A stretch of 64,000 nucleotides of DNA. It comes from Clostridia bacterium. GTDB lineage: Bacteria; Bacillota; Clostridia; Christensenellales; Borkfalkiaceae. Under the pieces are notes generated by a model. It was not told where the DNA came from and searched no databases. It saw only the letters and a list, made by a program, of their open reading frames with translations. Numbering within the stretch: position 1 is the first letter of the stretch; every line of letters starts with the position of its first letter. Shown here one piece after another: positions 2,967 through 57,583 of the stretch. The position numbers were made by a program, and so were the translations under genes. The DNA lies in contig CAAGJM010000035.1 in NCBI GenBank assembly GCA_900770185.1, positions 149,761-213,760 of the forward strand, given 5' to 3'.

Positions 2967-2985
2967 GGGCTTAACAAAAAATTAG

Positions 2986-3243: not shown

Positions 3244-4089
3244 ATGAAAAAACTACTCACTTTTATTCTCACCGTTGCTCTATCGCTGACAGCCGTATTC
3301 TCGCTTACCGCGTGCGGCAATAAAAAAGACCCGAACAAAATTTACGTCGGTATGGAGTGCGGATACGCGCCTTTCAACTTTACGCAGATGACCGAAGGCG
3401 ACGGCGCGGTTAAAATCAGCAACGCACATGGCTATGCCAACGGCTACGACGTTATGATAGCGAAAAAAATCGCCGAAGAAACCGGCAAAGAACTCGTTAT
3501 CGTTCAGTACGAATTCGACGCGCTTGTAAACGCCGTTAAATCGGGCGCGCTCGACTTCATCATCGCGGGCATGAGCCCGACGGCAAAAAGGCTTGAAAGC
3601 GTCGATTTTTCGGACGCATATTACGAAAGCCAACTCGTTATAGTCGTCAGAAAAGACGGGAACTTTGCTAACGCCGCGAACCTTGACGGCTTTAACGGCG
3701 CGAAAATCGCCGCGCAGATAGGGACTTTCCACGACGACGCGCTTCAATCCCAGGCCGCCGCTCACGGCATCATCCCCCAAACCCCGCTCGACACCTTCCC
3801 CGCGCTTATAAACGCGCTTAACAGCAAAGCAATCGACGGTTACGTTGCGGAAGAACCGGGCGCGATTGCAGACTGCGCCGCAAACGCCGCCCTCACCTAC
3901 GTTCGCTTAGTAAACAACTCGACGGGCTTTACCGCCACCGCGGAAGACGTGCAAATCGCTATCGGCATGAAAAAAGGCAGCGATTATAAAACGACCATAA
4001 ATACCGCTCTTAGCAAACTTGACAGCGCGGCCCGCTTGCAGATGATGACCGCCGCAACCGAATACGCGACTAAATACGCACAGAACTAA
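3244..4089 (+). CDS. polar amino acid ABC transporter substrate-binding lipoprotein (family 3 SBP); likely lysine-related given the upstream L-box
   Basis: Signal peptide plus lipobox (LTACGN), an SBP_bac_3-like sequence, and RBS AAAGGAG 7 nt upstream of the ATG at 3244. The track ORF 3109.. starts upstream inside the riboswitch. Confidence 0.8.
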   Translation: MKKLLTFILTVALSLTAVFSLTACGNKKDPNKIYVGMECGYAPFNFTQMTEGDGAVKISNAHGYANGYDVMIAKKIAEETGKELVIVQYEFDALVNAVKSGALDFIIAGMSPTAKRLESVDFSDAYYESQLVIVVRKDGNFANAANLDGFNGAKIAAQIGTFHDDALQSQAAAHGIIPQTPLDTFPALINALNSKAIDGYVAEEPGAIADCAANAALTYVRLVNNSTGFTATAEDVQIAIGMKKGSDYKTTINTALSKLDSAARLQMMTAATEYATKYAQN

Positions 4090-42709: not shown

Positions 42710-42906
42710 TTTATCACCGCTTAATATTTTAACACAGCTAAGCGATTTTAACAAGCCAAATTAAACGGGCGGCGCAAATTTTTAACCGGCAGTTTATCGC
42801 GGGCAAAAACCCGCTTACCCGCAGATTTTTTGAAAAAATAAATTTTGATTGATTTTTTTAAACTTTTAGAGTATAATAGTTGCAATTAAAAGAGGGGGGT
42901 GCGAAT

Positions 42907-43470
42907 TTGCCTAACTACACAAGGGAAGCGATTAAAGCGTCGTTTATAAAACTTTTAAACGAAAAGCCGCTTAACCGTATAACCGTTAAAAACATAATTT
43001 CCGATTGCAAAGTAAGCCGCAATACCTTTTATTATCACTTTAAAGACGTGCCCGAACTTTTGGAAGTAATAATAAAAGACCTTCTTGACGAACTTGTTAA
43101 AAACAACACGACGATAGACTCGGTAAGCGGCGTCATAGATATGGCGTACCGCTACTATAAAGAGAATAAAAAAGCGATTTATCACATATATAACTCTGTC
43201 GACAGGGTTTATTACGAAGACTTTTTGCTTAAAATGTGCGAACACACCGCTTCGACTTACGTAAACGAAACGGCAAAAACTTATCCGCTTAAAGACGTAG
43301 ACAAGGCCGCCCTTATTCACCTTTTAAAATGCCAGTTTTTCGGGCTTACGATGGAATGGTCGAAAGACGATATGGAAAGCGACATAGTTGAAAGCTGCCA
43401 TAAAACGATTGATTTGTTCTTGGAAATTATAATTAAAAAAAGCGGCAGTCAAAACGCGCCGTCAAACTGA
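42907..43470 (+). CDS. TetR-family transcriptional regulator
   Basis: N-terminal HTH (..ITVKNIISDCKVSRNTFYYHFKD..), RBS AAGAGGGGGG before a TTG start, -10 TATAAT at 42872. Confidence 0.7.
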   Translation: MPNYTREAIKASFIKLLNEKPLNRITVKNIISDCKVSRNTFYYHFKDVPELLEVIIKDLLDELVKNNTTIDSVSGVIDMAYRYYKENKKAIYHIYNSVDRVYYEDFLLKMCEHTASTYVNETAKTYPLKDVDKAALIHLLKCQFFGLTMEWSKDDMESDIVESCHKTIDLFLEIIIKKSGSQNAPSN

Positions 43471-43591: not shown

Positions 43592-43608
43592 TGTACTAAA
43601 ATAGTACA
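43592..43608. promoter_or_regulatory. palindromic operator-like site TGTACTA-aaa-TAGTACA overlapping a putative -10
   Basis: Perfect 7-bp inverted repeat with a 3-nt spacer. The core ACTA-N3-TAGT recurs at 48834-48848. Confidence 0.5.
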
Positions 43609-43718: not shown

Positions 43719-44975
43719 ATGTTTATTGATTTCACCCCGCAAATGAAAAAAGAATATACCATTCTTTGCCCCGACATTTTCCCCACGCACATGGAACTTT
43801 TGTCGGAAGTTTTTCATATTTACGGATATAATCTTCAAATAGTCAAATACGAGGGCAAAAAGGTCATAGACACGGGGCTTAAATACCTTAACAACGATAT
43901 GTGCTACCCTGCCGTATGCATGATAGGTCAGCAACTCTACGCGCTGACCTCGGGCGACTACGACCCGAAAAAATGCGCCCTTATACAGTTTCAGACGGGC
44001 GGCGGGTGCAGGGCGTCGAACTACATATTTTTGCTGCGCAAAGCGTTAAAACAAATGAATATGGAATACGTTCCCGTAATATCTTTAAGTTTTAGCGGGT
44101 ACGAAAAGTACAGCGGGTTTAAAATCACCCCGCTTATGATAGTGACGGCGCTCCGCTCTATCGTGTACGGGGACATGCTGTTGCTTTTAAAAAACCAAAC
44201 TCTTCCGTACGAAGTAAACGCCGGCGACACGCAAAAAACGGTTAAAAAATGGATAAACTTTTTAACCGAACAATTTAAGCGTAAACGCGGGCTTACAAGA
44301 CATGCGCTTAAAAAGAATTTGCAGGCAATGGCGAAAGATTTCAGCCTTATAAAGCGAGAGAAAAAGGAGCTTACAAAGGTCGGCATAGTGGGCGAAATTT
44401 ACGTTAAATACTCATCTTTCGGCAACAACGGGCTTGAAAAATTTTTACTTAAAGAAAATTGCGAATATATGGTGCCGGGGGTTTTGGGATTCTTTCAGTA
44501 CTGTTTTGCGAACGCCGAAACGGATAAAAAGTACTACGGCGGAAAACTTACGAGCGCGATTATAAATAAATTCGGCGAAAAAATAGCCGACGGGTGGGAA
44601 GAGATTTTAACGGAAGCGTTGCGCCCCTATCCCGAATTCAGCACCCCGCTTCCGTTTAACAAAGTTAAAAAACTTGCCGACGAGGTTATAGACCGCGGCG
44701 TTAAAATGGGCGAAGGGTGGCTTCTTTGCGGCGAAGTCGCCGAGCTTATTTTAAAGGGTTACGACAACGTTATCTGCGCCCAGCCTTTCGGGTGCCTGCC
44801 GAATCACATAGTAGCAAAAGGCACCATTCACCGCTTGCGCGAGCTTTACCCGACGGCGAACATTTTCCCCGTCGATTACGACGCGGGCGCAAGCAAAGTA
44901 AACCAGGAAAACCGCATAAAACTTATGCTTGCAATCGCTGAAAACGGAGATAAAAATGAAGACGCTGGGGCTTGA
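43719..44975 (+). CDS. 2-hydroxyacyl-CoA dehydratase-family (HgdA/B-like, DUF2229-type) protein; first half of a PlsA/PlsR-like plasmalogen-synthase-family pair
   Basis: 418 aa with the Cys pattern and length of the dehydratase-component-like family. Followed by, and overlapping, a double BcrAD/BadFG ATPase gene. Confidence 0.6.
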   Translation: MFIDFTPQMKKEYTILCPDIFPTHMELLSEVFHIYGYNLQIVKYEGKKVIDTGLKYLNNDMCYPAVCMIGQQLYALTSGDYDPKKCALIQFQTGGGCRASNYIFLLRKALKQMNMEYVPVISLSFSGYEKYSGFKITPLMIVTALRSIVYGDMLLLLKNQTLPYEVNAGDTQKTVKKWINFLTEQFKRKRGLTRHALKKNLQAMAKDFSLIKREKKELTKVGIVGEIYVKYSSFGNNGLEKFLLKENCEYMVPGVLGFFQYCFANAETDKKYYGGKLTSAIINKFGEKIADGWEEILTEALRPYPEFSTPLPFNKVKKLADEVIDRGVKMGEGWLLCGEVAELILKGYDNVICAQPFGCLPNHIVAKGTIHRLRELYPTANIFPVDYDAGASKVNQENRIKLMLAIAENGDKNEDAGA

Positions 44976-47874
44976 CGTCGGTTCGACCACTTTAAAAGCG
45001 GTGGTTCTTAGCGGCGATAAAATTTTATATTCCGCTTACGTTCGCCACCTTTCGCGCGTGGGCGAGAAGTTTAAAGAAATTTCCGCCGAATTAGCGGAAG
45101 TTTTAGGCGACGAGATTTTTAAGGCGGCAATATCGGGCTCGGCGGGAATGGGGCTTTCCGAAAAAGCGAACATCCCCTTTGTGCAAGAAGTTTTCGCCGA
45201 ACAACTTGCGGTTAAAAAGCTAAACAAAGGAACGGACGCGGTTATAGAACTCGGCGGCGAAGACGCGAAAATTTTGTTTTTGACGGGCGGGTTCGAGATG
45301 CGCATGAACGGTACCTGCGCGGGCGGCACGGGCGCGTTTATCGACCAGATGGCGACCCTTTTGAAAGTTGCGCCCGAAGAGTTAAACGCGCTTGCCGAAA
45401 AAGCCGAAAAGGTGTACAGAATCGCTTCGCGCTGCGGGGTTTTTGCAAAATCGGACGTACAACCGCTAATAAACCAAGGCGCAAAACACGAAGACGTTGC
45501 GGCGGGCATATATCAAGCCGTCGTATCGCAAACGGTTGCGGGGCTTGCGCAAGGGCGCGAAATTAAGGGTAACGTCGTATACTTGGGCGGACCTTTGACT
45601 TTTAACTCGTACCTTAGAAAAGCCATGGACGAAACGCTTAAAACGACCGGCGTTTTGCCCGAAAATTCGCTTTATTACGTTGCGATGGGCGCGGCGTTTT
45701 CAGGCGTCGGAAAAGAAACGACGCTTTCGGAATTAACCGCCGCTTTAACGAAAACCCAAACCGAAATAACTTATAACTCCGTCGCCCCGCTCTTTTTAAG
45801 CAACGCGGACTACGACGAGTTTTCTATGCGCCACGAAAAAAACCAAGGCGCGGTTAAACGTTTAAGCGCGCCCGAAAGCGAAATGTTCCTCGGCGTGGAC
45901 GCGGGGTCGACTACCGTTAAAATTCTTTTAACGAACAAAAACGGAGATATATTCCGCCCCTTTTACTCGTCGAACGACGGCAACCCCGTGCCGATAGTCA
46001 AAAAATATCTGGAAGATTTTTATAGTGAATACCCAAGCGTTAAAATTCTTGCTTCGGCGGTTACCGGCTACGGCGAAAACGTTATTAAAAACGCTTTTAA
46101 TTTAGACCTCGGGTTAGTCGAAACCATGGCGCATTACACCGCCGCGAAAAAATTTAACGAAAACGTCGATTTTATTTTGGATATCGGCGGTCAAGACATA
46201 AAATGCTTTAAAATACGCAACGGCGCGATTGACGGGCTTTATTTAAACGAAGCGTGTTCTTCGGGGTGCGGCTCGTTTTTGCAGACGTTTGCGGCGATTT
46301 TAGGCTACACCGCGCAAGAGTTTTCGCACCTTGCGCTGTTTGCCGACCACCCCGTTGACTTAGGCTCGCGCTGCACGGTGTTTATGAACAGTTCCGTAAA
46401 ACAAGCGCAAAAAGACGGCGCAAGCGTGGAAAACATTGCGGCGGGGCTTTCGATAAGCGTAGTTAAAAACGCGCTTTATAAGGTTATAAGATGCGCCGAC
46501 GGGAAAAGCCTCGGCAAAAACATAGTAGTGCAAGGCGGCACGTTTAAAAGCGACGCCGTTTTAAGAGCCTTCGAGCGGGAGACGGGCGCAAACGTTATCC
46601 GCCCCGAAATAGCCGAACTTATGGGAGCGTACGGCTGCGCGCTTTACGCCGCGGGTAAAGGTATAGAAAAAACCGAAACGATGACGGCGGAAGAACTTAA
46701 AAACTTCGTGCATACCGTAAAAACCATAACCTGCAAAGGGTGCACCAACCGATGCAATCTTACGATAAACACCTTTTCGGGCGGAAGAAAATTCATTGCG
46801 GGCAACCGCTGCCAAAAAGGCGCGGGCGTATCCGAAAAAATTACCGCGCCCGATTTATACGCCGATAAACTCGCGCTGTTAAGCGAGTATATGAAAAACG
46901 AAATCGACCCGAATAAAAAGACGGTCGGTTTTATGACGGGGCTTAATTTTTACGAACTTTTGCCGTTTTGGCACGCGTTTTTCAAGTCGCTTGACTTTAA
47001 TATTTTAACGTCGCCGACGGGAAGCAGAGATTTGTATCTTCTCGGTCAGCACACTATCCCGTCCGACACGGCTTGCTACCCCGCAAAACTTATGCACGGG
47101 CATGCGGAATGGCTTTTAAGCCGAAAACCCGACTATATTTTCTACCCCGATATGAGCTATAACGTGGAAGAAAATATGGGCGTTAATCACTTCAACTGCC
47201 CCGTGGTCGCTTACTATCCGCAGGTTTTGAAAATGAACGTTGCGGGGCTTAATAACGACAAATTTATATGCGACTTTTTGTCGCTTGCGAACAAAAAGCA
47301 GTTCAATAAGAGAATACGCGAAGTTTTAAGCGCGCACGGGCTTAATTTCACCAAAAAACAAATATCCGCCGCAACTAAAAACGCTTATGCGGAATACGAT
47401 AGTTACCTAAATAAAATTCGCGAAAACGCCGATAAGTATATTGCCGAAGCGATTAAAGAAAACAAGCCGATAATCGTGCTTGCGGGAAGACCCTATCACG
47501 TTGACCCCGAGATAAACCACGGCATCGACTCGCTTATTTCGGAAGCGGGCGCGACGGTTATTTCGGAAGACGGTTTGCGCGGCAAAATCGCGCCGTTTAG
47601 CGTAAACGTAAGAAACCAGTGGACGTATCACGCAAGGCTTTACGCGAGCGCGAAGTTCGTTAAAGAGTGCGAGTATAAAAACGTCGCGCTCGTTCAACTC
47701 GTATCTTTCGGGTGCGGCGTCGACGCGATAACGACGGACGAAGTAAGACAAATAGTCGAGAGCGGCGACAAAATTTACACGCAGATAAAAATAGACGAGA
47801 TATCGAATATGGGCGCGGTGAACATAAGGCTGAGGAGTTTGTTCGCGGTGCTTGACGCTAAGAATAAAAAGTAG
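44956..47874 (+). CDS. CoA-substrate-specific enzyme activase-type protein: two BadF/BadG/BcrA/BcrD ATPase domains fused to a dehydratase-component-like C-terminal domain (PlsA/PlsR-like)
   Basis: Two repeats of the acetate/sugar-kinase-fold N-terminus (MKTLGLDVGSTTLKAVV.. and MFLGVDAGSTTVKILL..). C-terminal 400 aa HGD-D-like with a Cys cluster. RBS GGAGATAAAA before the ATG at 44956. Confidence 0.7.
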   Translation: MKTLGLDVGSTTLKAVVLSGDKILYSAYVRHLSRVGEKFKEISAELAEVLGDEIFKAAISGSAGMGLSEKANIPFVQEVFAEQLAVKKLNKGTDAVIELGGEDAKILFLTGGFEMRMNGTCAGGTGAFIDQMATLLKVAPEELNALAEKAEKVYRIASRCGVFAKSDVQPLINQGAKHEDVAAGIYQAVVSQTVAGLAQGREIKGNVVYLGGPLTFNSYLRKAMDETLKTTGVLPENSLYYVAMGAAFSGVGKETTLSELTAALTKTQTEITYNSVAPLFLSNADYDEFSMRHEKNQGAVKRLSAPESEMFLGVDAGSTTVKILLTNKNGDIFRPFYSSNDGNPVPIVKKYLEDFYSEYPSVKILASAVTGYGENVIKNAFNLDLGLVETMAHYTAAKKFNENVDFILDIGGQDIKCFKIRNGAIDGLYLNEACSSGCGSFLQTFAAILGYTAQEFSHLALFADHPVDLGSRCTVFMNSSVKQAQKDGASVENIAAGLSISVVKNALYKVIRCADGKSLGKNIVVQGGTFKSDAVLRAFERETGANVIRPEIAELMGAYGCALYAAGKGIEKTETMTAEELKNFVHTVKTITCKGCTNRCNLTINTFSGGRKFIAGNRCQKGAGVSEKITAPDLYADKLALLSEYMKNEIDPNKKTVGFMTGLNFYELLPFWHAFFKSLDFNILTSPTGSRDLYLLGQHTIPSDTACYPAKLMHGHAEWLLSRKPDYIFYPDMSYNVEENMGVNHFNCPVVAYYPQVLKMNVAGLNNDKFICDFLSLANKKQFNKRIREVLSAHGLNFTKKQISAATKNAYAEYDSYLNKIRENADKYIAEAIKENKPIIVLAGRPYHVDPEINHGIDSLISEAGATVISEDGLRGKIAPFSVNVRNQWTYHARLYASAKFVKECEYKNVALVQLVSFGCGVDAITTDEVRQIVESGDKIYTQIKIDEISNMGAVNIRLRSLFAVLDAKNKK

Positions 47875-47935: not shown

Positions 47936-48736
47936 ATGTTTAACGGAGAAAACACCGCTTTATCGGTTATTATGCTCATAATTTTTCCGATAACGGCGTA
48001 TCTGATTGCGGGCGTGAACCCCGCGATAGTTTTATCGAAACTTATCTACAAACAAGATATCCGCTTGCTCGGCAGCAAAAACCCGGGGTTTACAAACTTT
48101 AAAAGGGTTTTCGGCGGAAAATACGCCTGGTTCGTCTTCTTTTTGGATTTGTTTAAATCGGCGGCGGTTTGCGCCGCGGCGGCGATAACTTATCACCTTT
48201 TGTTCGACGAAAGCAAAGACTTCAAGTGGTTCCATTTCGGGGGGGCGTACACGGGGTTTTTCGCCATGATAGGTCACGCATACCCCGTCTGGTACAAATT
48301 CAAGGGCGGCAAGGCGTTTTTGGTTGCGGCAAGCGCGATTTGGTTCGTTGACTGGCGCGTCGCGCTAATCGCCACGGTTATAATGATAACCCTTTTGTTT
48401 ACGACGAAGTACATGTCGCTTTCGGTGCTTATAGCGGGCTTTTCCTGCCCGATTGCCTTGGCGATTTTCGGCGTTAAAACCCCTTTGACTCTCGTTTTTT
48501 GCATACTGTCCGTTCTTTTGATGACCTATCGCCACAAAGCAAACATAGTAAGGCTTTTTAAAGGGACGGAATCGAAATTCTCGCCGTTTTCAAAAAACAA
48601 ACCCAAAAAAGCGGCGGCAAGTTGCACGAACGAAACGCCTGAGCCGAGCGGCGAAAACGACGGCGAAAACGACTTTGACAAAGCGACTAAACCGTGCGCC
48701 GAAAGCGACAACGACACTACAAAAAACTGCTTATAA
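47936..48736 (+). CDS. plsY: glycerol-3-phosphate acyltransferase PlsY with about 60-aa acidic C-terminal extension
   Basis: GSKNPGFTN (the GSGNPGATN-like motif), ..GHAYPVWYKFKGGKA... Confidence 0.85.
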   Translation: MFNGENTALSVIMLIIFPITAYLIAGVNPAIVLSKLIYKQDIRLLGSKNPGFTNFKRVFGGKYAWFVFFLDLFKSAAVCAAAAITYHLLFDESKDFKWFHFGGAYTGFFAMIGHAYPVWYKFKGGKAFLVAASAIWFVDWRVALIATVIMITLLFTTKYMSLSVLIAGFSCPIALAIFGVKTPLTLVFCILSVLLMTYRHKANIVRLFKGTESKFSPFSKNKPKKAAASCTNETPEPSGENDGENDFDKATKPCAESDNDTTKNCL

Positions 48737-48833
48737 TTACTATTAAACCCTCGAAACGCTTCGGGGGTTTTCGTTTTAATTAAGACAAAACGGCACGATT
48801 TGTACTAATTTGTTACACCCGCAGAATATTGAC

Positions 48834-48848
48834 CAACTAAGTTAGTTG
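48834..48848. promoter_or_regulatory. palindromic operator-like site CAACTA-agt-TAGTTG abutting the -35 of the acp-operon promoter
   Basis: ACTA-N3-TAGT core shared with the 43592 site. A half-site-like TGTACTA is also at 48801. Confidence 0.45.
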
Positions 48849-48872
48849 CAAGTTTTTCACAATTCGATATAA
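48845..48872 (+). promoter_or_regulatory. sigma-A-type promoter TTGCAA-16-TATAAT for the acp-KS-fab-acc-plsX operon
   Basis: Consensus-like hexamers about 110 nt upstream of the acp ATG. Confidence 0.5.
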
Positions 48873-48982
48873 TTGAACTGTGCGGCGTTATATATATTAT
48901 ATATATAAATATAACCTTGCGCCTGTCCGCCGCCTTAAAGGCTTAGCGGAATATTAAAAATAAAAAATTGAGAGGTATTATT

Positions 48983-49225
48983 ATGAACGAACTCGAAGTA
49001 AAAGCAAAAATCAAAGAAATGTTATGCGACCGTTTGGGCATCGAACCCGAAGCCCTTGAATACGACACCGCCCTTTTCAACGAAGGCATAGGTCTTGACA
49101 GCATCGACTCGCTCGAAATTATTTCGGCAATCGACGAAGAATACGGCGTTTCTATGACGGGCGTAGGCAAAGAACACTTCAAAAACATCGACGCGCTTGC
49201 GGAGTACGTTATCGCGAACGCTTAA
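48983..49225 (+). CDS. acyl carrier protein (divergent, DSIDS rather than DSLD)
   Basis: ..LGLDSIDSLEIISAIDEEYG.. phosphopantetheine-attachment site, 80 aa, RBS GAGAGG. Confidence 0.8.
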   Translation: MNELEVKAKIKEMLCDRLGIEPEALEYDTALFNEGIGLDSIDSLEIISAIDEEYGVSMTGVGKEHFKNIDALAEYVIANA

Positions 49226-49240
49226 TAAGTCGGTTTGGTT

Positions 49241-51613
49241 ATGAAAAACGATAACGTAACTTGCGTTATTACCGGCATCGGCGTTATCAGCGCGATAGGT
49301 AAAAACGTTGAAGAAAACTGGTCGAACATTCTCGCTTCGAAAAGCGGAATCGACCACACCAAAACGATAGACACGGCTAACTGCTACGCCGATTTCAGTG
49401 CGGAAGTTAAAGATTTTGCCGTGCCCGAAAATATCGACCGCGCCACCGCTCTTTGCTTAAAAGCGACTCAAGAAGCGGTCGGCGACGCAAACCTCGGCGA
49501 CTTTAACGGCGATAAGCGCGTAAGCGTTATTATGGGAAGTTGCGTAGGCGGCGGCAGAAGCATAGAAGATTATTATAGAAAAGGTAAAGACGAAAACTGT
49601 ATTTTAAAAATGCCTATTTCCGCCATCGCTAACCACGTTGCAAAAGCGTATAACGCGGGCGGCGTCGTTACGAACGTTGCAAACGCCTGCGCGGCGGGTA
49701 CGATAAGCATCGCTTACGCAGCCGACCTTATACGCGCAAAAAAAGCGGACGTGGTTATAGCGGGGGGCGCGGACGCCTTCTCGTCGGTACCCTACTCCGG
49801 CTTTTTATCTTTGCACGCGCTTGACGAAAACGGCTGCTCGCCCTTCAACCACTCGCACGGCATAACGCTCGGCGAAGGCGCGGGCGCGGTGATAGTCGAA
49901 TCGCTCGAACACGCAAAAGCTCGCGGCGCGAAAATTTACTGCGAAGTTTTGGGTTCGGGGATAAGCAGCGACGCTCACCATATAACCGCACCCCGCCCCG
50001 ACGGTGAAGGTCAGATGAAAGCGATACGCTCGGCGATAAGCTCTTCGGGGATTAGCGAAGCCGACGTCGATTACGTAAACGCACACGGCACCGGCACCGC
50101 TAAGAACGACGAAGCGGAATTTTTGTCTTTACACACCATTTTCGACGGTAAAAACGACAATTTATCGGTTAGTTCCACAAAAGCATACACCGGGCATTGC
50201 TTAGGCGCGGCGGGCGCGATAGAAGCGGTTTACGCCATTAAAGCGTTGAAAGAAAACGTCGTTCCGCCCACCCTCGGATATAGTGAAGAAGATTTAGCCG
50301 TTTTGAAAGAAAAGGCGGGAACCATGGACTTTACGCCCAACAAACCCGTTAAAAAGCAGTTAAACGCCGTTATGAACAACTCGTTTGCGTTCGGCGGCAA
50401 TAACGCAAGCATAATTTTCGGCAAAAATAAACAAGCCCCAGAAAAAGCCGCGGAACGCCGCGACATCGTTATAACCGGCATAGGCGTCGTTTCGCCTATC
50501 GCGAACGGCAAAACGGGTTACGTCGAGAAATGCCTCGAAGGATTTGTTCCGACGGAAGCCGAACAATCTTCTAACGTAACGACTACCGACTACGACAAGC
50601 AAGGTCTTAAAATGGCGTTTTACAGAAAACTTGACCATTTAAGCCAGCTTCAGGCGGTTTCTGGCATGGACGCGCTTAACGACGGCGCATACAAGGTAAG
50701 CGACGAAAACGCATTTAACATAGGTATGATTATCGGCACTTCGGAAGGCGCGCTCGGTCCGAGCCTTGACTTCCAGAGTATTATCGCCGAAAAAGGAAAC
50801 GCAGGCGGCAGCGCGTTCAAGTTCCCCAATACCGTTTATAATGCGGCGGGCGGATATTTATCTATCTGCTCCGGCATAAAAGGTTATAACGTGACCGTAA
50901 CGAACGGCGCGCAATCGGGGCTTCAATCTGCGGCTTATGCGATGCAGGTTATAAGAAACGGCGTCGAAGACGCGATGATTGCTACCGGCACCGACGAAAA
51001 CAGCGGAATTATTTCCGAAATTTATCATATTTTAGGCGTTGCCGCGGGCGAAAGGGTAAACCCCTACGACGGCAAAGATAAATTTTCTCTTTCGTGCGGA
51101 AGCATATCTAACCTTATGGAAACGAAAGAATCGGCAATTAAGCGCGGCGCGACCGTTTACGCGAAAGTTACGGGCTACGGCATGGCGCACGCAAGCGTTG
51201 ACTTCGGCACCGTCGACGGCTCTATCGCAGGTTTAAAAGACGCTATAAGCGAGGCTCTTAGCGACGCAAACGTATCCGCAAGCGACGTAAGCGCGGTTAT
51301 AGGTTTTGCAAACGGCTTAAAAGTTATTGACGATATAGAAACAAACGGGCTTAAAAAGTTCTTCGATTTAGAAAAAACGCCCGTTATAACCGTTAAAAAG
51401 CGCATGGGCGAAGCCCGCGCGGCTTCTGCGGCGCTTGCTCTATCCCACGCCGCCCTTATGCTTCACGGCGATATCGCCGCTGAAAAGGACGCTTACGTTT
51501 TCGTGAACGGCAAGCCCGAACAAACGGAAGTTAAAAGCGCAAATCTTAATAAAATACTCGTCGTATCGTATGCGGTCGGCGGGTCATACACGGCAATCGT
51601 CGTAGAAAAATAG
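49241..51613 (+). CDS. ketosynthase plus chain-length-factor-like didomain protein (KS-CLF fusion)
   Basis: Domain 1 has the condensing Cys (VANACAAG) and both His motifs (NAHGTGT, KAYTGHCLGAAG). Domain 2 aligns to domain 1 but has Gln at the Cys position (VTVTNGAQSGL) and no His motifs. Confidence 0.8.
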   Translation: MKNDNVTCVITGIGVISAIGKNVEENWSNILASKSGIDHTKTIDTANCYADFSAEVKDFAVPENIDRATALCLKATQEAVGDANLGDFNGDKRVSVIMGSCVGGGRSIEDYYRKGKDENCILKMPISAIANHVAKAYNAGGVVTNVANACAAGTISIAYAADLIRAKKADVVIAGGADAFSSVPYSGFLSLHALDENGCSPFNHSHGITLGEGAGAVIVESLEHAKARGAKIYCEVLGSGISSDAHHITAPRPDGEGQMKAIRSAISSSGISEADVDYVNAHGTGTAKNDEAEFLSLHTIFDGKNDNLSVSSTKAYTGHCLGAAGAIEAVYAIKALKENVVPPTLGYSEEDLAVLKEKAGTMDFTPNKPVKKQLNAVMNNSFAFGGNNASIIFGKNKQAPEKAAERRDIVITGIGVVSPIANGKTGYVEKCLEGFVPTEAEQSSNVTTTDYDKQGLKMAFYRKLDHLSQLQAVSGMDALNDGAYKVSDENAFNIGMIIGTSEGALGPSLDFQSIIAEKGNAGGSAFKFPNTVYNAAGGYLSICSGIKGYNVTVTNGAQSGLQSAAYAMQVIRNGVEDAMIATGTDENSGIISEIYHILGVAAGERVNPYDGKDKFSLSCGSISNLMETKESAIKRGATVYAKVTGYGMAHASVDFGTVDGSIAGLKDAISEALSDANVSASDVSAVIGFANGLKVIDDIETNGLKKFFDLEKTPVITVKKRMGEARAASAALALSHAALMLHGDIAAEKDAYVFVNGKPEQTEVKSANLNKILVVSYAVGGSYTAIVVEK

Positions 51614-51622
51614 GAGATTTAA

Positions 51623-52354
51623 ATGAAAGTTGCCATAGTTACGGGTTCATCGCGCGGGATAGGCAAAGCCTGCGCGTTAAGGCTCGCAAAAGACGGCTTC
51701 ACCGTCGTAATAAATTATTCGCACAGCGAAAGCGAAGCGAAAAACGTCCTTAATGAAATAGAATCGTTCGACGGAAGCGGCATGATTTACCGCGCCGACG
51801 TATCTAAGCTTGACGAAGTTAAGGCTATGATGCGCGACGTTTCAAAAACTTACGGACAAATAGACGTGCTTGTAAACAACGCGGGCATCGTTCGCGACGA
51901 ATATCTTTTAATGCTTAACCCCGAAACGCTCGATAAGTGCTTCGATTTAAACGTTAAGGGTTACTTTTACTGCGCTCAGCAGGCGGTGCTTAAAATGTTC
52001 CGTAAAAAAAGCGGCGTTGTTATAAACATGTCGTCGGTAAGCGGAATTTTAGCGTTAGCGGGTCAAAGCGTATATAGCGCGACGAAAGGCGCGGTCAACT
52101 CTTTGACGCAGACGATGGCAAAAGAACTTGCCCCCTACGGTATCCGCGTGAACGCCGTTGCGCCCGGGTTTATAGAAACGGAAATGTTAAACGCGTTAAG
52201 CGACGAAAAAAAGCAGGAATATTTAAACGCTATCCCCATGCACAGGCTCGGTACGGTTGAAGACGTAGCAAACGTCGTTTCAATGCTCGCGTCCGACGCG
52301 GCAAGCTACATTACGGGACAGATTATAACCGTTGACGGGGGCATTTCGCTATGA
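51623..52354 (+). CDS. fabG: 3-oxoacyl-ACP reductase (SDR)
   Basis: TGSSRGIG Rossmann, NNAG, YSATK active site. Confidence 0.85.
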   Translation: MKVAIVTGSSRGIGKACALRLAKDGFTVVINYSHSESEAKNVLNEIESFDGSGMIYRADVSKLDEVKAMMRDVSKTYGQIDVLVNNAGIVRDEYLLMLNPETLDKCFDLNVKGYFYCAQQAVLKMFRKKSGVVINMSSVSGILALAGQSVYSATKGAVNSLTQTMAKELAPYGIRVNAVAPGFIETEMLNALSDEKKQEYLNAIPMHRLGTVEDVANVVSMLASDAASYITGQIITVDGGISL

Positions 52355-52794
52355 TGAACATTTACGGCGTAAACAAATATATTAAACAGCGCCCGCCCTT
52401 TCAGATGATTGAAAAGGTGTTGGAAATCGTTCCGCAAGAATCTGCGGTGGGCGTTAAAACGGTTGCGATAAACGAACCGTGGTTTCAGGGGCACTTTCCC
52501 GATTCGCCTATTCTTCCGGGCGTACTGATAATCGAAAGTTGCGCGCAGCTTTGCTCTATCGTAACGGAAACGTATAGCGCGTCGGACGACAAACTTTACG
52601 TTTTGCTGAAAGTCGATAACTTCAAGTTCTTAAAACCGATTATCCCGGGCGACGTTATGACCGTCTCGGTCAAGAAAAAAAGCGGCGCGGGTCCCCTTTT
52701 TACGTACGAGGCGGTGGTTACGGTAGACGGCGAAATAAGGAGTAAAGGCTCGCTTTCGTTCACCGCCATCCCCGACGTTAAAAACGAACTTTAA
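52351..52794 (+). CDS. fabZ: 3-hydroxyacyl-ACP dehydratase (hotdog fold, FabZ-like)
   Basis: ..HFPDSPILPGVLIIESCAQL.. with catalytic His and the GxxxE-like context. Confidence 0.85.
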   Translation: MMNIYGVNKYIKQRPPFQMIEKVLEIVPQESAVGVKTVAINEPWFQGHFPDSPILPGVLIIESCAQLCSIVTETYSASDDKLYVLLKVDNFKFLKPIIPGDVMTVSVKKKSGAGPLFTYEAVVTVDGEIRSKGSLSFTAIPDVKNEL

Positions 52795-52832
52795 GCTTGG
52801 CGGCAAAAATTAAAGATAACTAAAAGGATTTT

Positions 52833-53759
52833 ATGGCTAAAATTGCATTTTTGTTTGCGGGTCAGGGCGCGCAAACTGTCGGAATGGGTAAAGATTTATA
52901 CGAAACTTTTCCCGCAGCCAAAAGCGTTTTTGACGCGGGCGAGAAAATTTTGAACGGCGTTACGGATATTTGTTTCAACGCCGAAAAAGAAGTTTTAAAC
53001 CAAACCGAAAACACTCAGCCCTGCTTATTTTTAACCGATTTGGCGATTGCGGATACTTTGCTTGCCGCAGGGGTTGTTCCCGACGCGGTCGCGGGCTTCT
53101 CGCTCGGCGAAATACCCGCGCTTTCGTTTGCGGGCGTTATGAGCTTTGAAGACGCGTTTAAATTCGTGGTCGTGCGAGGCAAAGCTATGGCGGAAGCTTC
53201 AAAAAAGCACCCCGGCGCAATGGTCGCCGCGCTGAAACTCGACGCTAAAACCGTAGAACAGACCGCCGCCGAATTCAGCGAAATGTGGCCTGTCAACTAT
53301 AACTGTCCGGGGCAAATCGTTTGCGCAGGGAAGTCCGAACAGGCGGACGAGTTTGCGGAAGCGATTAAACTTGCGGGCGGCAGAGCCGTAAAACTGCCCG
53401 TCAGCGGCGCATTCCACACCCCTTATATGGAAAGCGTTAAGCCCGTTTTAGAAAAAACGCTTAACTATCTTAGCGTAAACGCGCCGAAAACGACTGTATA
53501 CGCAAACCGCACCGCTTTACCCTACCCAAACGTTAAAAGCGAAATTATATCTACCCTTTCATCGCAGGTATGCAATCCCGTCAAGTGGGAACAAACGATT
53601 AAAAACCTGCAAAATAGCGGCATTGACACTTTTATAGAAGTGGGTGCGGGGCAGACGCTTACAAGCCTTGTTAAGCGCACGCTTACGGACGTGAATGTGT
53701 TTACGGTAAACGACGCTGCGGGCGTAAACGCGGTTTTACAGGAACTTAAAGGAGAATAA
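52833..53759 (+). CDS. fabD: malonyl-CoA:ACP transacylase
   Basis: FLFAGQGAQ and the GFSLGE active-site Ser. Confidence 0.9.
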   Translation: MAKIAFLFAGQGAQTVGMGKDLYETFPAAKSVFDAGEKILNGVTDICFNAEKEVLNQTENTQPCLFLTDLAIADTLLAAGVVPDAVAGFSLGEIPALSFAGVMSFEDAFKFVVVRGKAMAEASKKHPGAMVAALKLDAKTVEQTAAEFSEMWPVNYNCPGQIVCAGKSEQADEFAEAIKLAGGRAVKLPVSGAFHTPYMESVKPVLEKTLNYLSVNAPKTTVYANRTALPYPNVKSEIISTLSSQVCNPVKWEQTIKNLQNSGIDTFIEVGAGQTLTSLVKRTLTDVNVFTVNDAAGVNAVLQELKGE

Positions 53760-53765
53760 TTCGTT

Positions 53766-54548
53766 ATGGTTACCCACAGCGAAGTTTTAAAAAAATGCCC
53801 GTTTTGCGGCAAAGAAGTAAGCGTAGGCGAGCTTTTTAAGGTGAATTTTATTTGCCCCGACTGCAAAAATTATTTTCAGGTCCCCGCAAGGGAGCGCGTT
53901 ATGCTTCTATCCGACGAAGGCGAATTTAACGAACTTTTCGGCGCGGAAATATTCATCGACCCGATAAACTTCCCCGACTACAAGCAAAAATACGACTCCG
54001 CAAAGAAAAAAAGCGGCGAGAACGAAGGCGTTTTGTGCGGCGTTACCAAAATTAACGGACATAAAACCTGCATTTTCGTTATGAACAGCGAATTTATGAT
54101 GGGTTCTATGGGTACGGTCGTCGGCGACAGAATAACCGCCCTTTTCGAGTATGCAACCCGCCACAAACTGCCCGTTATAGGCTACACCGTTTCGGGCGGC
54201 GCCAGGATGCAGGAAGGCATACTTTCGCTTATGCAGATGGCTAAAGTTTCAGCCGCCGTCAAAAAGCACGACGAGCACGGGCTTTTGTACGTAGTTTGTC
54301 TGACCGACCCGACCATGGGCGGAGTTACGGCAAGCTTTGCGATGCTCGGCGATATTATTTTTGCCGAACCCGGCGCAAGAATCGGCTTTGCGGGAAGGCG
54401 CGTCGTCGAACAGGTTACGGGCGAAAAACTGCCCGACTTTTTCCAGACCGCCGAATTTCAACTGCAAAACGGGTTTGTAGACGAGATTGTTCCGAGAGAA
54501 ATTCAGAAAGACCACCTTGCAAAATTACTTGAACTGCACGGATATTGA
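53766..54548 (+). CDS. accD: acetyl-CoA carboxylase carboxyltransferase beta subunit
   Basis: N-terminal Zn ribbon CPFCGK..CPDC and a crotonase-like CT domain. Confidence 0.9.
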   Translation: MVTHSEVLKKCPFCGKEVSVGELFKVNFICPDCKNYFQVPARERVMLLSDEGEFNELFGAEIFIDPINFPDYKQKYDSAKKKSGENEGVLCGVTKINGHKTCIFVMNSEFMMGSMGTVVGDRITALFEYATRHKLPVIGYTVSGGARMQEGILSLMQMAKVSAAVKKHDEHGLLYVVCLTDPTMGGVTASFAMLGDIIFAEPGARIGFAGRRVVEQVTGEKLPDFFQTAEFQLQNGFVDEIVPREIQKDHLAKLLELHGY

Positions 54549-54582
54549 CGACGTTCGTTTTTATCCGCGATAAGGAGATTTT

Positions 54583-55434
54583 ATGCCATCGACGGTTTAC
54601 GATAGGGTTTTAAGCACCCGCAAAAACGGGCGCGCGACCGCTATCGACTATATAAATTCAATATTTACCGATTTTATCGAACTACACGGCGACAGAGCAA
54701 CGCAAGACGACCACGCTATCGTGGGCGGCATAGCTAAACTTAACGATATGCCCGTAACCGTATTAGGAATTGAAAAAGGGCGCAACATAACCGAACGCTT
54801 AGACAGAAACTTCGGTTGCGTTCTGCCGAGCGGTTACAGAAAGGCTTTAAGACTTATTAAAGAAGCGGAAAAATTCCACCGCCCCGTCGTTTGCTTTGTC
54901 GATACGCTCGGCGCAAACTGCGGCAAACTTGCCGAAGAACGCGGCGCGGGGGAGGCGATTGCAAAGAACATCGCCGAACTTTCCGCCGTAAAAACACCCG
55001 TTATTTCCGTTATGATAGGCGAAGGCGGTAGCGGCGGCGCGCTTGCGCTTGCGGTTGCGGATAAAGTCTGGATGCTTGAAAACGCATATTATTCGGTAAT
55101 TTCACCCGAATCTTGCGCAAGCATACTGTTTAAAGACCCCGCCCGCGCACCCGAAGCTGCCGAGCACCTTAAACTTTCCGCACACGACTTATATAAAATG
55201 GGCGTTGCCGAAAAAGTTATTGCCGAGCCGAGCGACTTTCAGAATACGGACGAAAGCAATACGTTTATGGAAGGTCTTAAAAACGACCTTTACGACGAGT
55301 TTAAGCGTTTGCAGTTCAAAACGCCCCACCGCTTAATAAGCGAGCGCACCGAAAAGTACAGAAAAATAGGCAGATATAACGAGTACGCCGTAAATAAATT
55401 CAGCGTTTTGGGGCTGTTAAATCTCGGTAATTAA
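54583..55434 (+). CDS. accA: acetyl-CoA carboxylase carboxyltransferase alpha subunit
   Basis: ..PVVCFVDTLGA..GEGGSGGALA.. AccA signature. Confidence 0.9.
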   Translation: MPSTVYDRVLSTRKNGRATAIDYINSIFTDFIELHGDRATQDDHAIVGGIAKLNDMPVTVLGIEKGRNITERLDRNFGCVLPSGYRKALRLIKEAEKFHRPVVCFVDTLGANCGKLAEERGAGEAIAKNIAELSAVKTPVISVMIGEGGSGGALALAVADKVWMLENAYYSVISPESCASILFKDPARAPEAAEHLKLSAHDLYKMGVAEKVIAEPSDFQNTDESNTFMEGLKNDLYDEFKRLQFKTPHRLISERTEKYRKIGRYNEYAVNKFSVLGLLNLGN

Positions 55435-55485
55435 ACGTTTATCATTACTAAAATATAGCCGTTTACGGCTGAATTCGATTTAAAA

Positions 55486-56232
55486 ATGGAAAACAACGAA
55501 CCTAAAAAAATTTTAATAATAAACGGCAGTCCGCATAAAGAAAAAAGCACCACTATGATGATAACCGACGCTTTTACGCGCGGAATGTTATCGGTCGGCG
55601 GGTACCAAGCGGAAACGGTGCACGTTTCCGAACTTAATGTTAAGCCCTGCACGGGTTGTTTGTCGTGCTGGGGACGGACTGAAGGCGAATGCGTTATAAA
55701 AACCGACGATATGCCCGCGCTTAAACGCAAACTTATAGAAGCAGACGTCGTTATCGGCAGCTTTCCGCTCTATTATTTCGGCGTGCCGGGAATTTTAAAA
55801 GTCGTTATAGATAGGCTTTTATCTATGGTTAAAGCCTATCACGGACAATTAACCCCGAAAGATAACGCGCCCGCGCACGAATTCAGATACCCTAAACCCG
55901 GCAAAAAATACGTGCTTATTTCAGGTTGCGCCTACACGGAAACGGACGTCGTATACGTGCCCGTCATTAAGCAGTTCGACCTTATTTTGGGGAAAGACAA
56001 CTACACCGCTCTTTTCTGCCCGCAATTTAAAACCATGGCGGATAACGGCGGCGCGCGCAAAGAGCGCATTTTAAATAAGTTTGTTAAAGCAGGCGAAGAG
56101 TTTGCAAAAAACGGCTGTTTATCGCAGAAAACGATTGAGTCGGCAACCAAGCCGCCGTTTTCGAGCGAAGTTTACAAAACCATATTAAACAGCGTTTGGG
56201 CGGGTGAAAAACTTAAAGGCGGTCTTGTATGA
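55486..56232 (+). CDS. iron-sulfur flavoprotein (Isf)-like NAD(P)H-dependent FMN reductase-fold protein
   Basis: Flavodoxin-like N-terminus ILIINGSPHKEKSTT and the compact Cys motif CTGCLSC..x7..C (Cx2Cx2Cx7C) typical of Isf proteins. The stop overlaps the plsX start (ATGA). Confidence 0.7.
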   Translation: MENNEPKKILIINGSPHKEKSTTMMITDAFTRGMLSVGGYQAETVHVSELNVKPCTGCLSCWGRTEGECVIKTDDMPALKRKLIEADVVIGSFPLYYFGVPGILKVVIDRLLSMVKAYHGQLTPKDNAPAHEFRYPKPGKKYVLISGCAYTETDVVYVPVIKQFDLILGKDNYTALFCPQFKTMADNGGARKERILNKFVKAGEEFAKNGCLSQKTIESATKPPFSSEVYKTILNSVWAGEKLKGGLV

Positions 56233-57194
56233 TTAAACTTAGCGTTGATATGCTCGGCGCGGACAAACCCGAAACGGAGCTTGCGGCGGGCGCGATAAAC
56301 TTTCTTAAAAAAACCGACGATATATTTTTATACGTCTTCGGACACGTTAGCGAATTAAAGCCGCTTTTTTCCGCTTACCCCGAAATTAACGGCAAATACG
56401 AAATAGTCGATTCAGAAGACGCCCTTACGAATTACAGCGACCCTATGCTTGCGTATACCGACGAAAACGCCTCCCTCGTAAAAGCGATGAAGTACGCAAA
56501 AGACGGACTTTCGGAAGGCATCGTTACCCTTGGCGCAACGGGAGCGGTTTTAGTTTGCTCTATTATGATTTTGGGCAAAATTAAAGGACTACGCCCCATT
56601 TTAGCGGTCGAACTGAAAGCGGAAAACGATAAGCCGATGCTTATAGTTGACTGCGGCGCGAATATCGATAGCCGCGCGGAACTTTACGTTTCGTTTGCGA
56701 AACTCGGCGACGCATATATGAAGTGTTTGGGATTAGCGAACCCGCGCATTGCTCTTTTAAGTAACGGCGCGGAAAAAACCAAAGGCAACGAAGCAGTAAA
56801 AGCGGCGCATAAACTTTTGGAAGCAACGCCCGTCAACTTTATCGGCAACGTTGAAGCGACCGGTGCGCTTAGCGGCAGTCAGGACGTTATAGTTGCCGAC
56901 GGGTTCAACGGAAACGTTTTACTGAAATCTATCGAAGGGGTTGCGAAAACCGTCATTGCCGAAATCGAACAAAAAGTGCAAAATTCAAGCGAATTTAAAG
57001 AAGTTTTGGCAACCGTAAAGAAAAAGTACGATTATAATACGCAAGGCGGCGCAATGCTTTTGGGAGTAAACAAACCCGTTATGAAAGGTCACGGTTCGGC
57101 AACGCACGAAGCGATTGAAAATATGCTGCTCCGTTTAAGCGATTTGGCAAAAAACGGCTTTATTGAAAAAGTCCGGTCAAGCTTAGAAAAGTAA
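56229..57194 (+). CDS. plsX: phosphate acyltransferase PlsX
   Basis: MIKLSVDMLGADKPE.. and a PlsX-like core. Confidence 0.9.
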   Translation: MIKLSVDMLGADKPETELAAGAINFLKKTDDIFLYVFGHVSELKPLFSAYPEINGKYEIVDSEDALTNYSDPMLAYTDENASLVKAMKYAKDGLSEGIVTLGATGAVLVCSIMILGKIKGLRPILAVELKAENDKPMLIVDCGANIDSRAELYVSFAKLGDAYMKCLGLANPRIALLSNGAEKTKGNEAVKAAHKLLEATPVNFIGNVEATGALSGSQDVIVADGFNGNVLLKSIEGVAKTVIAEIEQKVQNSSEFKEVLATVKKKYDYNTQGGAMLLGVNKPVMKGHGSATHEAIENMLLRLSDLAKNGFIEKVRSSLEK

Positions 57195-57320
57195 ACAGAT
57201 AAACAATAAAAGTCGCCAACAACTTGGCGGCTTTTGCGTTTTAAAATTTGTTTGCGCCAATACGTCATATTTGCTTGATATTTTTGGTGTTTTGCTGTAA
57301 AATAATTATAAATTAAATAT

Positions 57321-57394
57321 GCGGATGTAGTTCAGTGGTAAAACAACGGCTTCCCAAGCCGTGGTTGCGGGTCCGATTCCCGTCATCCGCTCCA
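57321..57394 (+). tRNA. tRNA-Gly (anticodon CCC)
   Basis: Hand-folded cloverleaf: acceptor GCGGATG/CATCCGC, anticodon stem ACGGC/GCCGT with loop TTCCCAA, T-arm, encoded CCA. A hairpin terminator follows at 57396-57422. Confidence 0.8.
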
Positions 57395-57583
57395 CTTTAA
57401 ACACGCTTAATGCGTGTTTTTTTTGCGGTAGGGGCGAGGACCCGCAGGGTACGGTTGCGCAGAAGAAGTTAAACAAAAACCGTATAAATAATTTGCGCAA
57501 CTTGCCAAGGGGCTCCCCTTTAGGGGTTTCGGCAAATTCCCGTCATCCGCTCCACTTTAAACACGCTTAATGCGTGTTTTTTT
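57376..57583 (+). repeat. direct duplication (about 46-48 bp) of the tRNA-Gly 3' end plus its terminator hairpin, with copies at 57376-57421 and 57536-57583
   Basis: The string ATTCCCGTCATCCGCTCCACTTTAAACACGCTTAATGCGTGTTTTTTT occurs twice, about 160 bp apart. Confidence 0.85.

Follow-up and report, generated by a model that had tools for sequence, protein, structure and literature searches.

Reduction of enoyl-ACP (ACP, acyl carrier protein) is the most species-variable and the most often drug-targeted step of bacterial fatty-acid synthesis, with enoyl-ACP reductases (ENRs) of the FabI, FabK, FabL and FabV types. Polyunsaturated fatty acid (PUFA) synthases are anaerobic fatty-acid machines that use a flavin mononucleotide (FMN)-dependent enoyl reductase (ER), PfaD, and their subunit PfaC belongs to a multidomain megasynthase in which tandem ACPs and FabA-like dehydratase (DH) domains are also found. 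Decarboxylation of malonyl-ACP has been proposed for the chain-length factors (CLFs) of polyketide systems, and iron-sulfur flavoproteins (Isf) are implicated in oxidative stress and electron transfer. FLR of Flavonifractor plautii is an FMN enzyme that hydrogenates C=C bonds conjugated to a carbonyl, cannot use NAD(P)H directly, and was assigned by its discoverers to a previously unrecognised class of ene-reductases (PMC7862272). KEGG-based work has reported fatty-acid synthesis to be missing from many uncultured gut lineages (PMC6784871). Here we describe a gene cassette in which a fused ketosynthase (KS)-CLF protein and an Isf-like flavoprotein are encoded together with type II fatty-acid synthesis (FASII) components, within a 64,000-nucleotide stretch of the Clostridia bacterium assembly GCA_900770185.1 (contig CAAGJM010000035.1, positions 149,761 to 213,760); the whole of this stretch is referred to as the window, and coordinates are those of the window.

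We favor the reading, with a probability of about 0.55, that positions 48983–57194 constitute a self-contained, non-canonical FASII operon in which the Isf-like flavoprotein would be a new ENR and the KS-CLF protein would replace both FabF and FabH; the system is a FASII variant, and the candidate reductase would represent a new class if confirmed. In the proposed pathway, AccDA together with an unlinked AccBC would provide malonyl-CoA, and FabD would load the malonyl group onto the operon's own ACP. The single-chain KS-CLF pseudo-heterodimer would carry out all of the condensations, and priming without FabH would also fall to it, most likely through decarboxylation of malonyl-ACP to acetyl-ACP, with Gln558, beside the lost Cys of the CLF half, as a candidate decarboxylation residue. 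The CLF half may act in this way, and this is the weakest part of the model, Gln558 being suggestive and out of register with the KSQ glutamine. FabG would then perform the keto-reduction and FabZ the dehydration, and the Isf-like flavoprotein would reduce trans-2-enoyl-ACP with electrons from a low-potential carrier rather than from NAD(P)H directly; ferredoxin or flavodoxin is the predicted source because the protein has an Fe-S cluster motif and FLR is unable to use NAD(P)H. Finally, PlsX would convert the acyl-ACP product to acyl-phosphate for PlsY, so that the product would feed phospholipid synthesis.

The Isf-like protein is the candidate for enoyl reduction because this is the one indispensable step with no gene at any locus, because the protein is a constant cassette member without an assigned role, and because its gene adjoins fabZ in many genomes and its fold group includes a proven ene-reductase. 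A primary rather than an accessory role is suggested by linkage to plsX or plsC, fabD, acc genes and in some cases acpS, by the housekeeping neighbors, and by the full malonyl-ACP supply of one of the cassette layouts described below. We infer both replacement activities, and the role as the cell's main fatty-acid synthase, from context, in which the linkage to plsX or plsC is suggestive.

Gene organization and distribution of the cassette

The region from 47936 to 57194 contains ten co-oriented open reading frames (ORFs), all on the forward strand, and the gene identities given to them in an earlier reading of the DNA made without database searches (the sequence-only reading) are borne out, at the same coordinates, by Pfam and NCBIfam profile scans. 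The conserved unit extends from acp to plsX (48983–57194). Its leftmost gene, acp (48983–49225), encodes a divergent ACP of 80 amino acids (PF00550, E 1.7e-11), and is followed by the fused KS-CLF gene (49241–51613), a single ORF of 790 codons. To the right of this are fabG, encoding a 3-oxoacyl-ACP reductase (51623–52354; NF009466 229.8 bits, cutoff 222; TIGR01830 278 bits), fabZ, encoding a 3-hydroxyacyl-ACP dehydratase (52351–52794; NF000582 127.5 bits, cutoff 113), and fabD, encoding malonyl-CoA:ACP transacylase (52833–53759; TIGR00128 262.1 bits, cutoff 260.9). The two genes for the carboxyltransferase half of acetyl-CoA carboxylase follow, accD (53766–54548; TIGR00515 299.5 bits) and accA (54583–55434; NF041504 322 bits, cutoff 300), and then the gene for the 248-residue Isf-like flavoprotein, the candidate ENR (55486–56232; FMN_red and Flavodoxin_2 domains). 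The rightmost gene is plsX, encoding an acyl-ACP:phosphate acyltransferase (56229–57194; PF02504 E 1e-59; TIGR00182 212 bits, below the cutoff of 243). From acp to plsX the genes are separated by gaps of 6–51 nt, and of the stop/start overlaps noted in the sequence-only reading two are found, fabG/fabZ and isf/plsX, each of 4 nt.

The edges of the transcription unit require some revision. The tenth gene, plsY (47936–48736), encoding an acyl-phosphate:glycerol-3-phosphate acyltransferase (PF02660 E 2.7e-40; TIGR00023 127.6 bits, just under the cutoff of 137.2), had been placed in the same operon, a placement that we do not retain: a terminator-like hairpin with an 11-bp stem and a following T-run (48745–48770, forward strand) and a 246-nt spacer with a promoter-like site separate it from acp. 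It lies 61 nt downstream of its preceding gene, falls outside the conserved cassette, and probably closes an upstream transcription unit. The promoter proposed previously is present as a promoter-like TTGCAA-16-TATAAT on the forward strand (48846–48873), and 3′ of plsX, where the only terminator had been proposed, there is a hairpin (CGCCAAcaacTTGGCG; 57214–57229, forward strand) with a weak 6-bp stem and a T-rich tail. Because consensus matches for promoters and hairpins are no more frequent across the region than in shuffled sequence, all of these calls are at most suggestive.

Relatives of the KS-CLF family were found in 561 species representatives when one genome per species was scanned with the CLF-half alignment as query, and the 80 best loci were examined by tblastn with the window proteins, layouts being counted over the 56 loci with at least 5.5 kb after fabZ. 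The 80 best loci come from uncultured Clostridia, cultured Lachnospira eligens, Eubacterium spp., Ruminococcus and Ruminococcaceae FB2012, and from Christensenella-type, Acholeplasmatales, Anaeroplasma, 'Bacillales' and Mollicutes metagenome-assembled genomes (MAGs), and twelve are Treponema-titled. Three loci labeled as Acidiphilium, Desulfovibrio piger and Coriobacteriaceae (L006, L026 and L060) have cassettes very similar to those of the Clostridia or Eubacterium type, and are probably mis-binned or misnamed MAG contigs, not genuine members of the named taxa.

Three features of this set stand out. First, the acp-KS/CLF pair is kept in all 80 of the best loci and fabG-fabZ in nearly all, and acp-KS/CLF-fabG-fabZ plus isf forms a constant core in three main layouts. 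Layout A, that of the window, is acp-KS/CLF-fabG-fabZ-fabD-accD-accA-isf, followed by plsX in most cases (33 of the 56 loci). Layout B is acp-KS/CLF-fabG-fabZ-isf-acp2-accB-accC-accD-accA-fabD, and is seen in 11 Acholeplasmatales-type loci (L028, L035, L036, L042, L043, L054, L059, L066, L069, L077 and L080); its acp2, accB, accC, accD, accA and fabD make up a full malonyl-ACP supply line typical of primary fatty-acid synthesis. The second acp, between isf and accB (e.g. L035 13085–13315), encodes a protein ∼38–40% identical to E. coli AcpP (L035 and L042), and in the same two loci the gene after fabD may encode a BirA-like biotin ligase, as judged by eye from the N-terminal sequence. Layout C is acp-KS/CLF-fabG-fabZ-isf with plsX optional, followed in Treponema by genes for PlsC-like and patatin-like proteins, both called on sequence motifs alone.

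Secondly, isf is in the cassette and on the same strand in 53 of the 56 loci, the three exceptions all being Treponema, and in 27 loci it starts 15–206 nt after fabZ, a position in which it would complete a set of KS, ketoreductase, DH and ER. In the three exceptions (L049, L056 and L065, all MAGs) fabZ is directly followed by genes for the PlsC-like acyltransferase and the patatin-like protein; in L050 isf is kept and the PlsC-like gene is further downstream, and in L071 isf precedes the PlsC-like and patatin-like genes. Across loci, the identity of isf co-varies with that of the remaining cassette genes (Spearman rho 0.34–0.63), which is consistent with co-inheritance and confounded by phylogeny, and is given no weight here.

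Thirdly, plsX is the last cassette gene in 30 of the 56 loci, and in most lineages the terminal gene is either plsX or one for a PlsC-like protein, which suggests that the product is directed to phospholipid; acpS is linked to the cassette in some loci. The flanking genes are completely different between lineages, and it is therefore the cassette itself that is the conserved entity. Of the arrangement that the sequence-only reading had proposed comparing across related genomes, the part from acp onward is conserved, and plsY is never adjacent to it (0 of 80 related loci). Neither this cassette nor an Isf-type ENR turned up in the curated family libraries or in the full-text literature, in lexical searches that can miss work.

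The condensing enzyme, the Isf-like flavoprotein and the absent functions

Searches for the absent functions used E. coli FabH, FabI, AccB and AccC and Streptococcus pneumoniae FabK as probes, the last verified against PDB 2z6i (690 bits over all 324 residues), and covered the 64-kb window, a further ∼17 kb of the 147-kb source contig (∼81 kb in total), and flanks of up to 10 kb per side at the 80 loci. There is no FabH homologue in the ∼81 kb or in the flanks of the 80 loci, the single weak match lying inside a KS half, and no match to FabK in either set. The FabI probe matches FabG alone, at 22–26% identity; FabV and FabL were not probed directly. A second FabF-like KS outside the fused genes is present neither in the window, nor in the extra 17 kb, nor in any flank. 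The cassette of the window contains accD and accA, and AccB and AccC were not found in the ∼81 kb; elsewhere they were seen only in the 11 layout B loci, inside the cassette. The extra ∼17 kb contains no fab or acc genes. We note that it does contain, after recG and ∼0.3–2.3 kb past the window (L094 14068–16062), an Asp23 gene and fakA, encoding the fatty-acid kinase FakA with Dak2 and FakA-like domains.

The lack of fabH, of a known ENR (with FabV and FabL unprobed) and of accBC at the locus, as given in the sequence-only reading, thus extends to the rest of the window, the additional ∼17 kb and the related flanks, the accB-accC genes of 11 loci being the exception. That reading left a choice between activities encoded elsewhere and an unusual scheme, and the answer appears to differ by function. 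AccBC is probably encoded elsewhere in this genome, since the presence of accB-accC inside the cassette in 11 loci indicates that the activity is needed and is merely unlinked here. For FabH and the ENR an unusual scheme is favored, because the same cassette, with the fused KS-CLF and the Isf-like protein and without FabH and an ENR, recurs in hundreds of species and in different chromosomal contexts; both have probably been replaced. A FabG that doubles as ENR was considered and rejected, since the protein scores 278 bits as FabG on TIGR01830 versus 210 bits on the FabL model, for which the cutoff is 328.

The N-terminal half of the KS-CLF protein is a FabF-like KS that aligns over its full length with FabF structures, shares 34% identity with the E. 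coli protein and scores 430 bits on PRK07314 (cutoff 387). It keeps the Cys150/His247/His282 triad, which is invariant in 120–121 of 121 homologues. The C-terminal half, likewise FabF-like, shares 24% identity with its own KS half and 27% with FabF of E. coli; Ala557 takes the place of the Cys, and both catalytic His residues are lost. Gln558 is conserved in 117 of 121 homologues and aligns one residue after the catalytic-Cys position in three independent HMMER alignments, such that the CLF half does not have the decarboxylating KSQ signature, in which Gln replaces the active-site Cys as in the CLFs of aromatic polyketide synthases (PKSs). Among PDB sequences, the KS and CLF halves are closest to chains B and C, respectively, of 9s5h, an unpublished heterodimer that shows that related KS-CLF pairs are being studied; the CLF half matches 9s5h_C with E 7e-29, FabF with E 1e-25 and the actinorhodin CLF with E 2e-7.

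In an AlphaFold2 (AF2) model of the whole protein (pTM 0.92) the two halves are confidently placed relative to each other as a rigid didomain. The best whole-length fold match in the PDB is the KS-CLF didomain of PfaC (6riw; TMq 0.79, E 1e-50); FabF structures each cover just one half of the model. Fused KS-CLF didomains are therefore already known, and a free-standing one in a FASII-type operon is without description in the literature searched. There are well over a hundred KS-CLF homologues at 60% identity or more. The cassette ACP has the motif GLDSIDS, with the phosphopantetheine-attachment Ser within DSID, is 25% identical to E. coli AcpP, and scores 38.9 bits against an AcpP equivalog cutoff of 70.45.

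The Isf-like protein contains the PF03358 and PF02525 domains (FMN_red and Flavodoxin_2), and the residues of the FMN-phosphate loop are present. Four cysteines (Cys55, Cys58, Cys61 and Cys69; CX2CX2CX7C) are invariant across 46 aligned homologues, and we take this to be the compact [4Fe-4S]-binding motif of iron-sulfur flavoproteins. The AF2 model (pLDDT 94.8) shows a flavodoxin-like fold and, at the C terminus, a helical extension of ∼60 amino acids, and a Foldseek search with the model returns generic FMN azo/quinone reductases (TM 0.55–0.58, probability 1.0), which does not resolve the function. By sequence profile, the best match in the PDB is 7d38 (FLR; E 7e-13), with the Cys-rich segment included, and reduction of C=C bonds of the FLR type is the chemistry that an ENR needs. 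None of the curated NCBIfam models (June 2026) names this protein, and its homologues are labeled "flavodoxin family protein" in public records. The sequence-only reading had treated it as a bystander; we instead regard this protein, a cassette member at 53 of the 56 loci, as the leading candidate for the "missing" reductase.

The wider Isf-like family has 472 cluster representatives at E≤1e-30. Many distant homologues, 340–620 amino acids long, carry an SCP2 lipid-binding domain, often together with an unassigned C-terminal region, and one is fused to a GDSL lipase; those noted for SCP2 or a lipid context are P0215–P0217, P0222, P0228, P0232, P0242, P0248 and P0290. Furthermore, P0215 adjoins genes for an ACP and an AMP-binding (acyl-AMP) ligase, and P0213 adjoins a GDSL lipase gene. 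Judged by sequence, the wider family is tied to lipids through both domain fusion and gene neighborhood. An Isf-PlsX fusion, which we considered for the homologues of 530–575 amino acids, was rejected, as these contain SCP2 and unassigned sequence instead, and in one case the GDSL lipase.

Alternative explanations

Several observations weigh against a FASII operon with an Isf-like ENR. Canonical fabH, fabK or fabI, acpP and fabF genes could lie elsewhere, as ∼81 kb of the genome was examined, and fakA indicates that the organism probably also uses exogenous fatty acids. The ACP and the KS half are unusually divergent for a housekeeping synthase, and also score on models of the aryl-polyene (APE) and cispentacin types; the 11 layout B loci have a second, more AcpP-like ACP, so the first may be specialized; and Gln558 is one residue past the Cys position and not at it as in actinorhodin-type CLFs. 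For the reductase, the FLR match is limited to residues 33–112 and leaves the C-terminal domain of FLR unmatched, the best Foldseek matches are the generic FMN reductases, and three Treponema loci (L049, L056 and L065) have no isf next to the cassette.

Many of these points are shared with an accessory, PKS-like pathway, in which the cassette's own ACP and KS-CLF would make a specialized acyl chain (a polyene, a chain of unusual length or a PUFA-like chain) that is put into phospholipid, with bulk lipid coming from a canonical FASII elsewhere or from scavenged fatty acids. We regard this as unlikely, while giving it appreciable weight. Divergent ACP and KS proteins are what such a pathway would look like, type II PKS, APE and ishigamide systems are characterized by KS-CLF pairs, the halves are closest to 9s5h B and C by sequence and the whole protein to the PUFA-synthase PfaC KS-CLF by fold, a second ACP of the AcpP type is available in the 11 loci, and fakA is nearby. 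However, in the gene tables and ORF lists of the examined cassettes we saw none of the genes typical of such clusters, i.e. those for cyclases, aromatases, adenylation proteins, thioesterases, glycosyltransferases or exporters; linked instead are fabD, accDA (joined by accBC in 11 loci), plsX or plsC, and acpS at some loci. Moreover, the cassette occurs in 561 species, largely with one fixed gene order and in housekeeping surroundings, and a second KS was found in no flank. An APE or aromatic type II PKS cluster was rejected on two grounds: we saw no genes for tailoring enzymes, export or cyclases, and the Gln is out of register.

A housekeeping FASII operon could also contain an Isf-like protein that is not its ENR, with a known ENR (FabK, FabI or FabV) encoded elsewhere and the flavoprotein acting as a FabX-like anaerobic dehydrogenase/isomerase for unsaturated fatty acids, in electron transfer or in oxidative protection; we consider this distinctly improbable. 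Classical Isf proteins are implicated in oxidative stress and electron transfer, no isomerase of the FabA, FabM or FabN type was noted among the cassette genes, and both the three Treponema loci without isf in the cassette and the fold matches to generic FMN reductases are compatible with such a role. In Helicobacter pylori, FabX is an FMN/[4Fe-4S] enzyme reported to act on acyl-ACP in unsaturated fatty-acid synthesis (PMC8626469). FabX has the FabK/NMO fold, however, and not the flavodoxin fold, and the closest solved relative of the Isf-like protein, FLR, is an ene-reductase (PMC7862272). In addition, an ENR is indispensable in each elongation cycle, yet the FabI and FabK probes revealed a gene for one in none of the 80 loci, and isf is nearly always there, often directly after fabZ.

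A decaying FASII remnant in a fatty-acid scavenger, no longer working after loss of fabH, the ENR and accBC, is very improbable even though fakA, plsX and plsY make an exogenous fatty-acid route available and KEGG-based surveys report the pathway as missing from many uncultured gut lineages (PMC6784871), since no ORF is disrupted, the catalytic residues do not vary among 121 homologues, and the same gene set at 50–80% identity in hundreds of species of three phylum-level groups indicates purifying selection on a working unit.

A fuller form of the favored reading, a FASII operon with an Isf-like ENR, can be put forward only tentatively and at somewhat less than even odds. The Isf-like protein would found a new flavodoxin-fold, NAD(P)H-independent class of FMN/[4Fe-4S] ENRs, and together with the self-priming KS-CLF would provide the only fatty-acid synthase in over 500 species from the gut and rumen. 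With the same reserve, we suggest that this FASII variant could need neither FabH nor a known ENR in its hosts, which are Clostridia including L. eligens, Acholeplasmatales-type Bacilli and Treponema. If so, a structurally unrelated, ferredoxin- or flavodoxin-fed ENR class would shift which gut commensals are expected to be hit or spared by FabI- or FabK-directed antibiotics, and priming by a fused KS-CLF, in a synthase without FabH, would tie primary fatty-acid synthesis to the way in which polyketide and PUFA synthases use KS-CLF. Surveys of pathway completeness would score genomes with the cassette as being without initiation and enoyl reduction, and the cassette could explain lipid synthesis in some of the "FASII-incomplete" genomes. 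Because the cultured host L. eligens carries the cassette, the proposal is directly testable.

Flanking features and comparison with known systems

To the left of the cassette, and outside its conserved part, the gene order from 42880 onward is a TetR-family regulator gene, two overlapping genes, and then plsY. The regulator gene (42880–43470, forward strand; Pfam TetR_N and TetR_C_8) has homologues that immediately precede acp in many of the related loci, those of 48–52% identity lying upstream of the cassette in L002, L009–L012, L014, L016, L017 and L019, and the protein is a candidate regulator of lipid genes. The overlapping genes (43719–47874, forward strand) encode products of 418 and 972 amino acids, the latter from the ATG at 44956, with two BcrAD_BadFG domains, DUF2229, and a match to the acyl-CoA dehydratase activase model TIGR00241. 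By size and family the pair resembles the two-gene anaerobic plasmalogen synthase plsA/plsR; the C. perfringens plsA-plsR fragment is 4,199 bp (PMC12838417), versus 4.16 kb for the pair in the window, and in E. faecalis a TetR gene precedes pls as well (PMC9702350, PMC12838417). At locus L064 a pair of the same type comes after isf.

Upstream of the pls-like genes, the 17-mer TGTACTAAAATAGTACA (43592–43608, no strand assigned) is an inverted repeat that resembles an operator. The pattern TGTACTAAnnTnnTACA, derived post hoc from its two sites in the window, occurs only there and as TGTACTAATTTGTTACA at 48801–48817, just upstream of the acp promoter-like site, at the left of a putative cassette control region (48801–48873, forward strand). 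At 8 of 69 loci (L025–L027, L030, L031, L033, L040 and L053) a related 17-mer precedes acp, compared to 0.85% of random 420-nt windows, and we consider it a candidate for a shared operator of a lipid regulator. The control region also contains a perfect 7-1-7 palindrome, CAACTAAGTTAGTTG (48834–48848), that overlaps the −35 box of the promoter-like site; it occurs once in the window, is not conserved at other loci, and is a local observation. Downstream of the palindrome, the leader at 48889–48915 has an alternating TA run (TATATATATTATATATATAAATATAA).

Two further features of the window were noted. To the right of the cassette is a perfect 48-nt direct repeat (57376–57423 and 57536–57583, 160 nt apart), each copy of which consists of the 3′ end of a tRNA-Gly(CCC) gene and its terminator hairpin; it looks like the att-site scar of integration or excision at the tRNA gene, with ∼112 nt left between the copies. 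Near the left end, a lysine riboswitch aptamer (Rfam RF00168, 87 bits) is located at 2981–3152, upstream of an ORF at ∼3109–4089.

Among known systems, the cassette can be compared first with canonical FASII, as in the plsX-fabH-fabD-fabG-acpP-fabF cluster of E. coli and the fabK/fabI and accBCDA clusters of Firmicutes. It shares with these a discrete ACP, a Cys-His-His KS, FabG, FabZ, FabD, AccDA and a linked PlsX, and its products reach or nearly reach the curated thresholds for FabG, FabZ, FabD and AccA. It differs in being without FabH, FabI and FabK, and FabL and FabV (the last two not probed directly), in having a KS fused to a catalytically dead CLF-like copy and an ACP with 25% identity to AcpP, and in having the Isf-like protein as a fixed member, with accBC unlinked in the lineage of the window.

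The KS-CLF pairs of type II PKS-like systems, i.e. actinorhodin KSalpha/KSbeta, ApeO/ApeC (aryl-polyene), Iga11/Iga12 (ishigamide), AmcF/G (cispentacin) and 9s5h B/C, share with the cassette protein an active KS and a partner without the catalytic Cys and His residues. The cassette version is one 790-residue polypeptide and not two chains, its Gln is one residue past the Cys position rather than at it, and its neighbors are fabG, fabZ, fabD, accDA and plsX rather than genes for cyclases, aromatases and tailoring enzymes. The PfaC KS-CLF (6riw) is the only solved one that is covalently fused, and matches the whole of the 790-residue model at 17% sequence identity; the cassette didomain, in contrast, stands alone among discrete FASII-type proteins, and its candidate ER has a flavodoxin fold and not the FabK/PfaD fold.

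Three comparisons bear on the Isf-like protein. FLR (7d38–7d3b), its closest solved relative by profile, is likewise an FMN enzyme of a gut anaerobe, but is longer (310 versus 248 amino acids), with another C-terminal domain, a different Cys spacing, and a flavone as substrate rather than an acyl-ACP. Isf of the Methanosarcina thermophila type shares the flavodoxin-like FMN domain and the compact four-Cys motif, and is ∼190 amino acids long, whereas the cassette protein has the helical C-terminal extension of ∼60 residues and a fixed place in a fatty-acid synthesis operon. FabK, of the NMO/TIM-barrel type, is not detectably similar to the Isf-like protein, yet its FMN-mediated hydride transfer to enoyl-ACP demonstrates that flavin chemistry suffices for this step.

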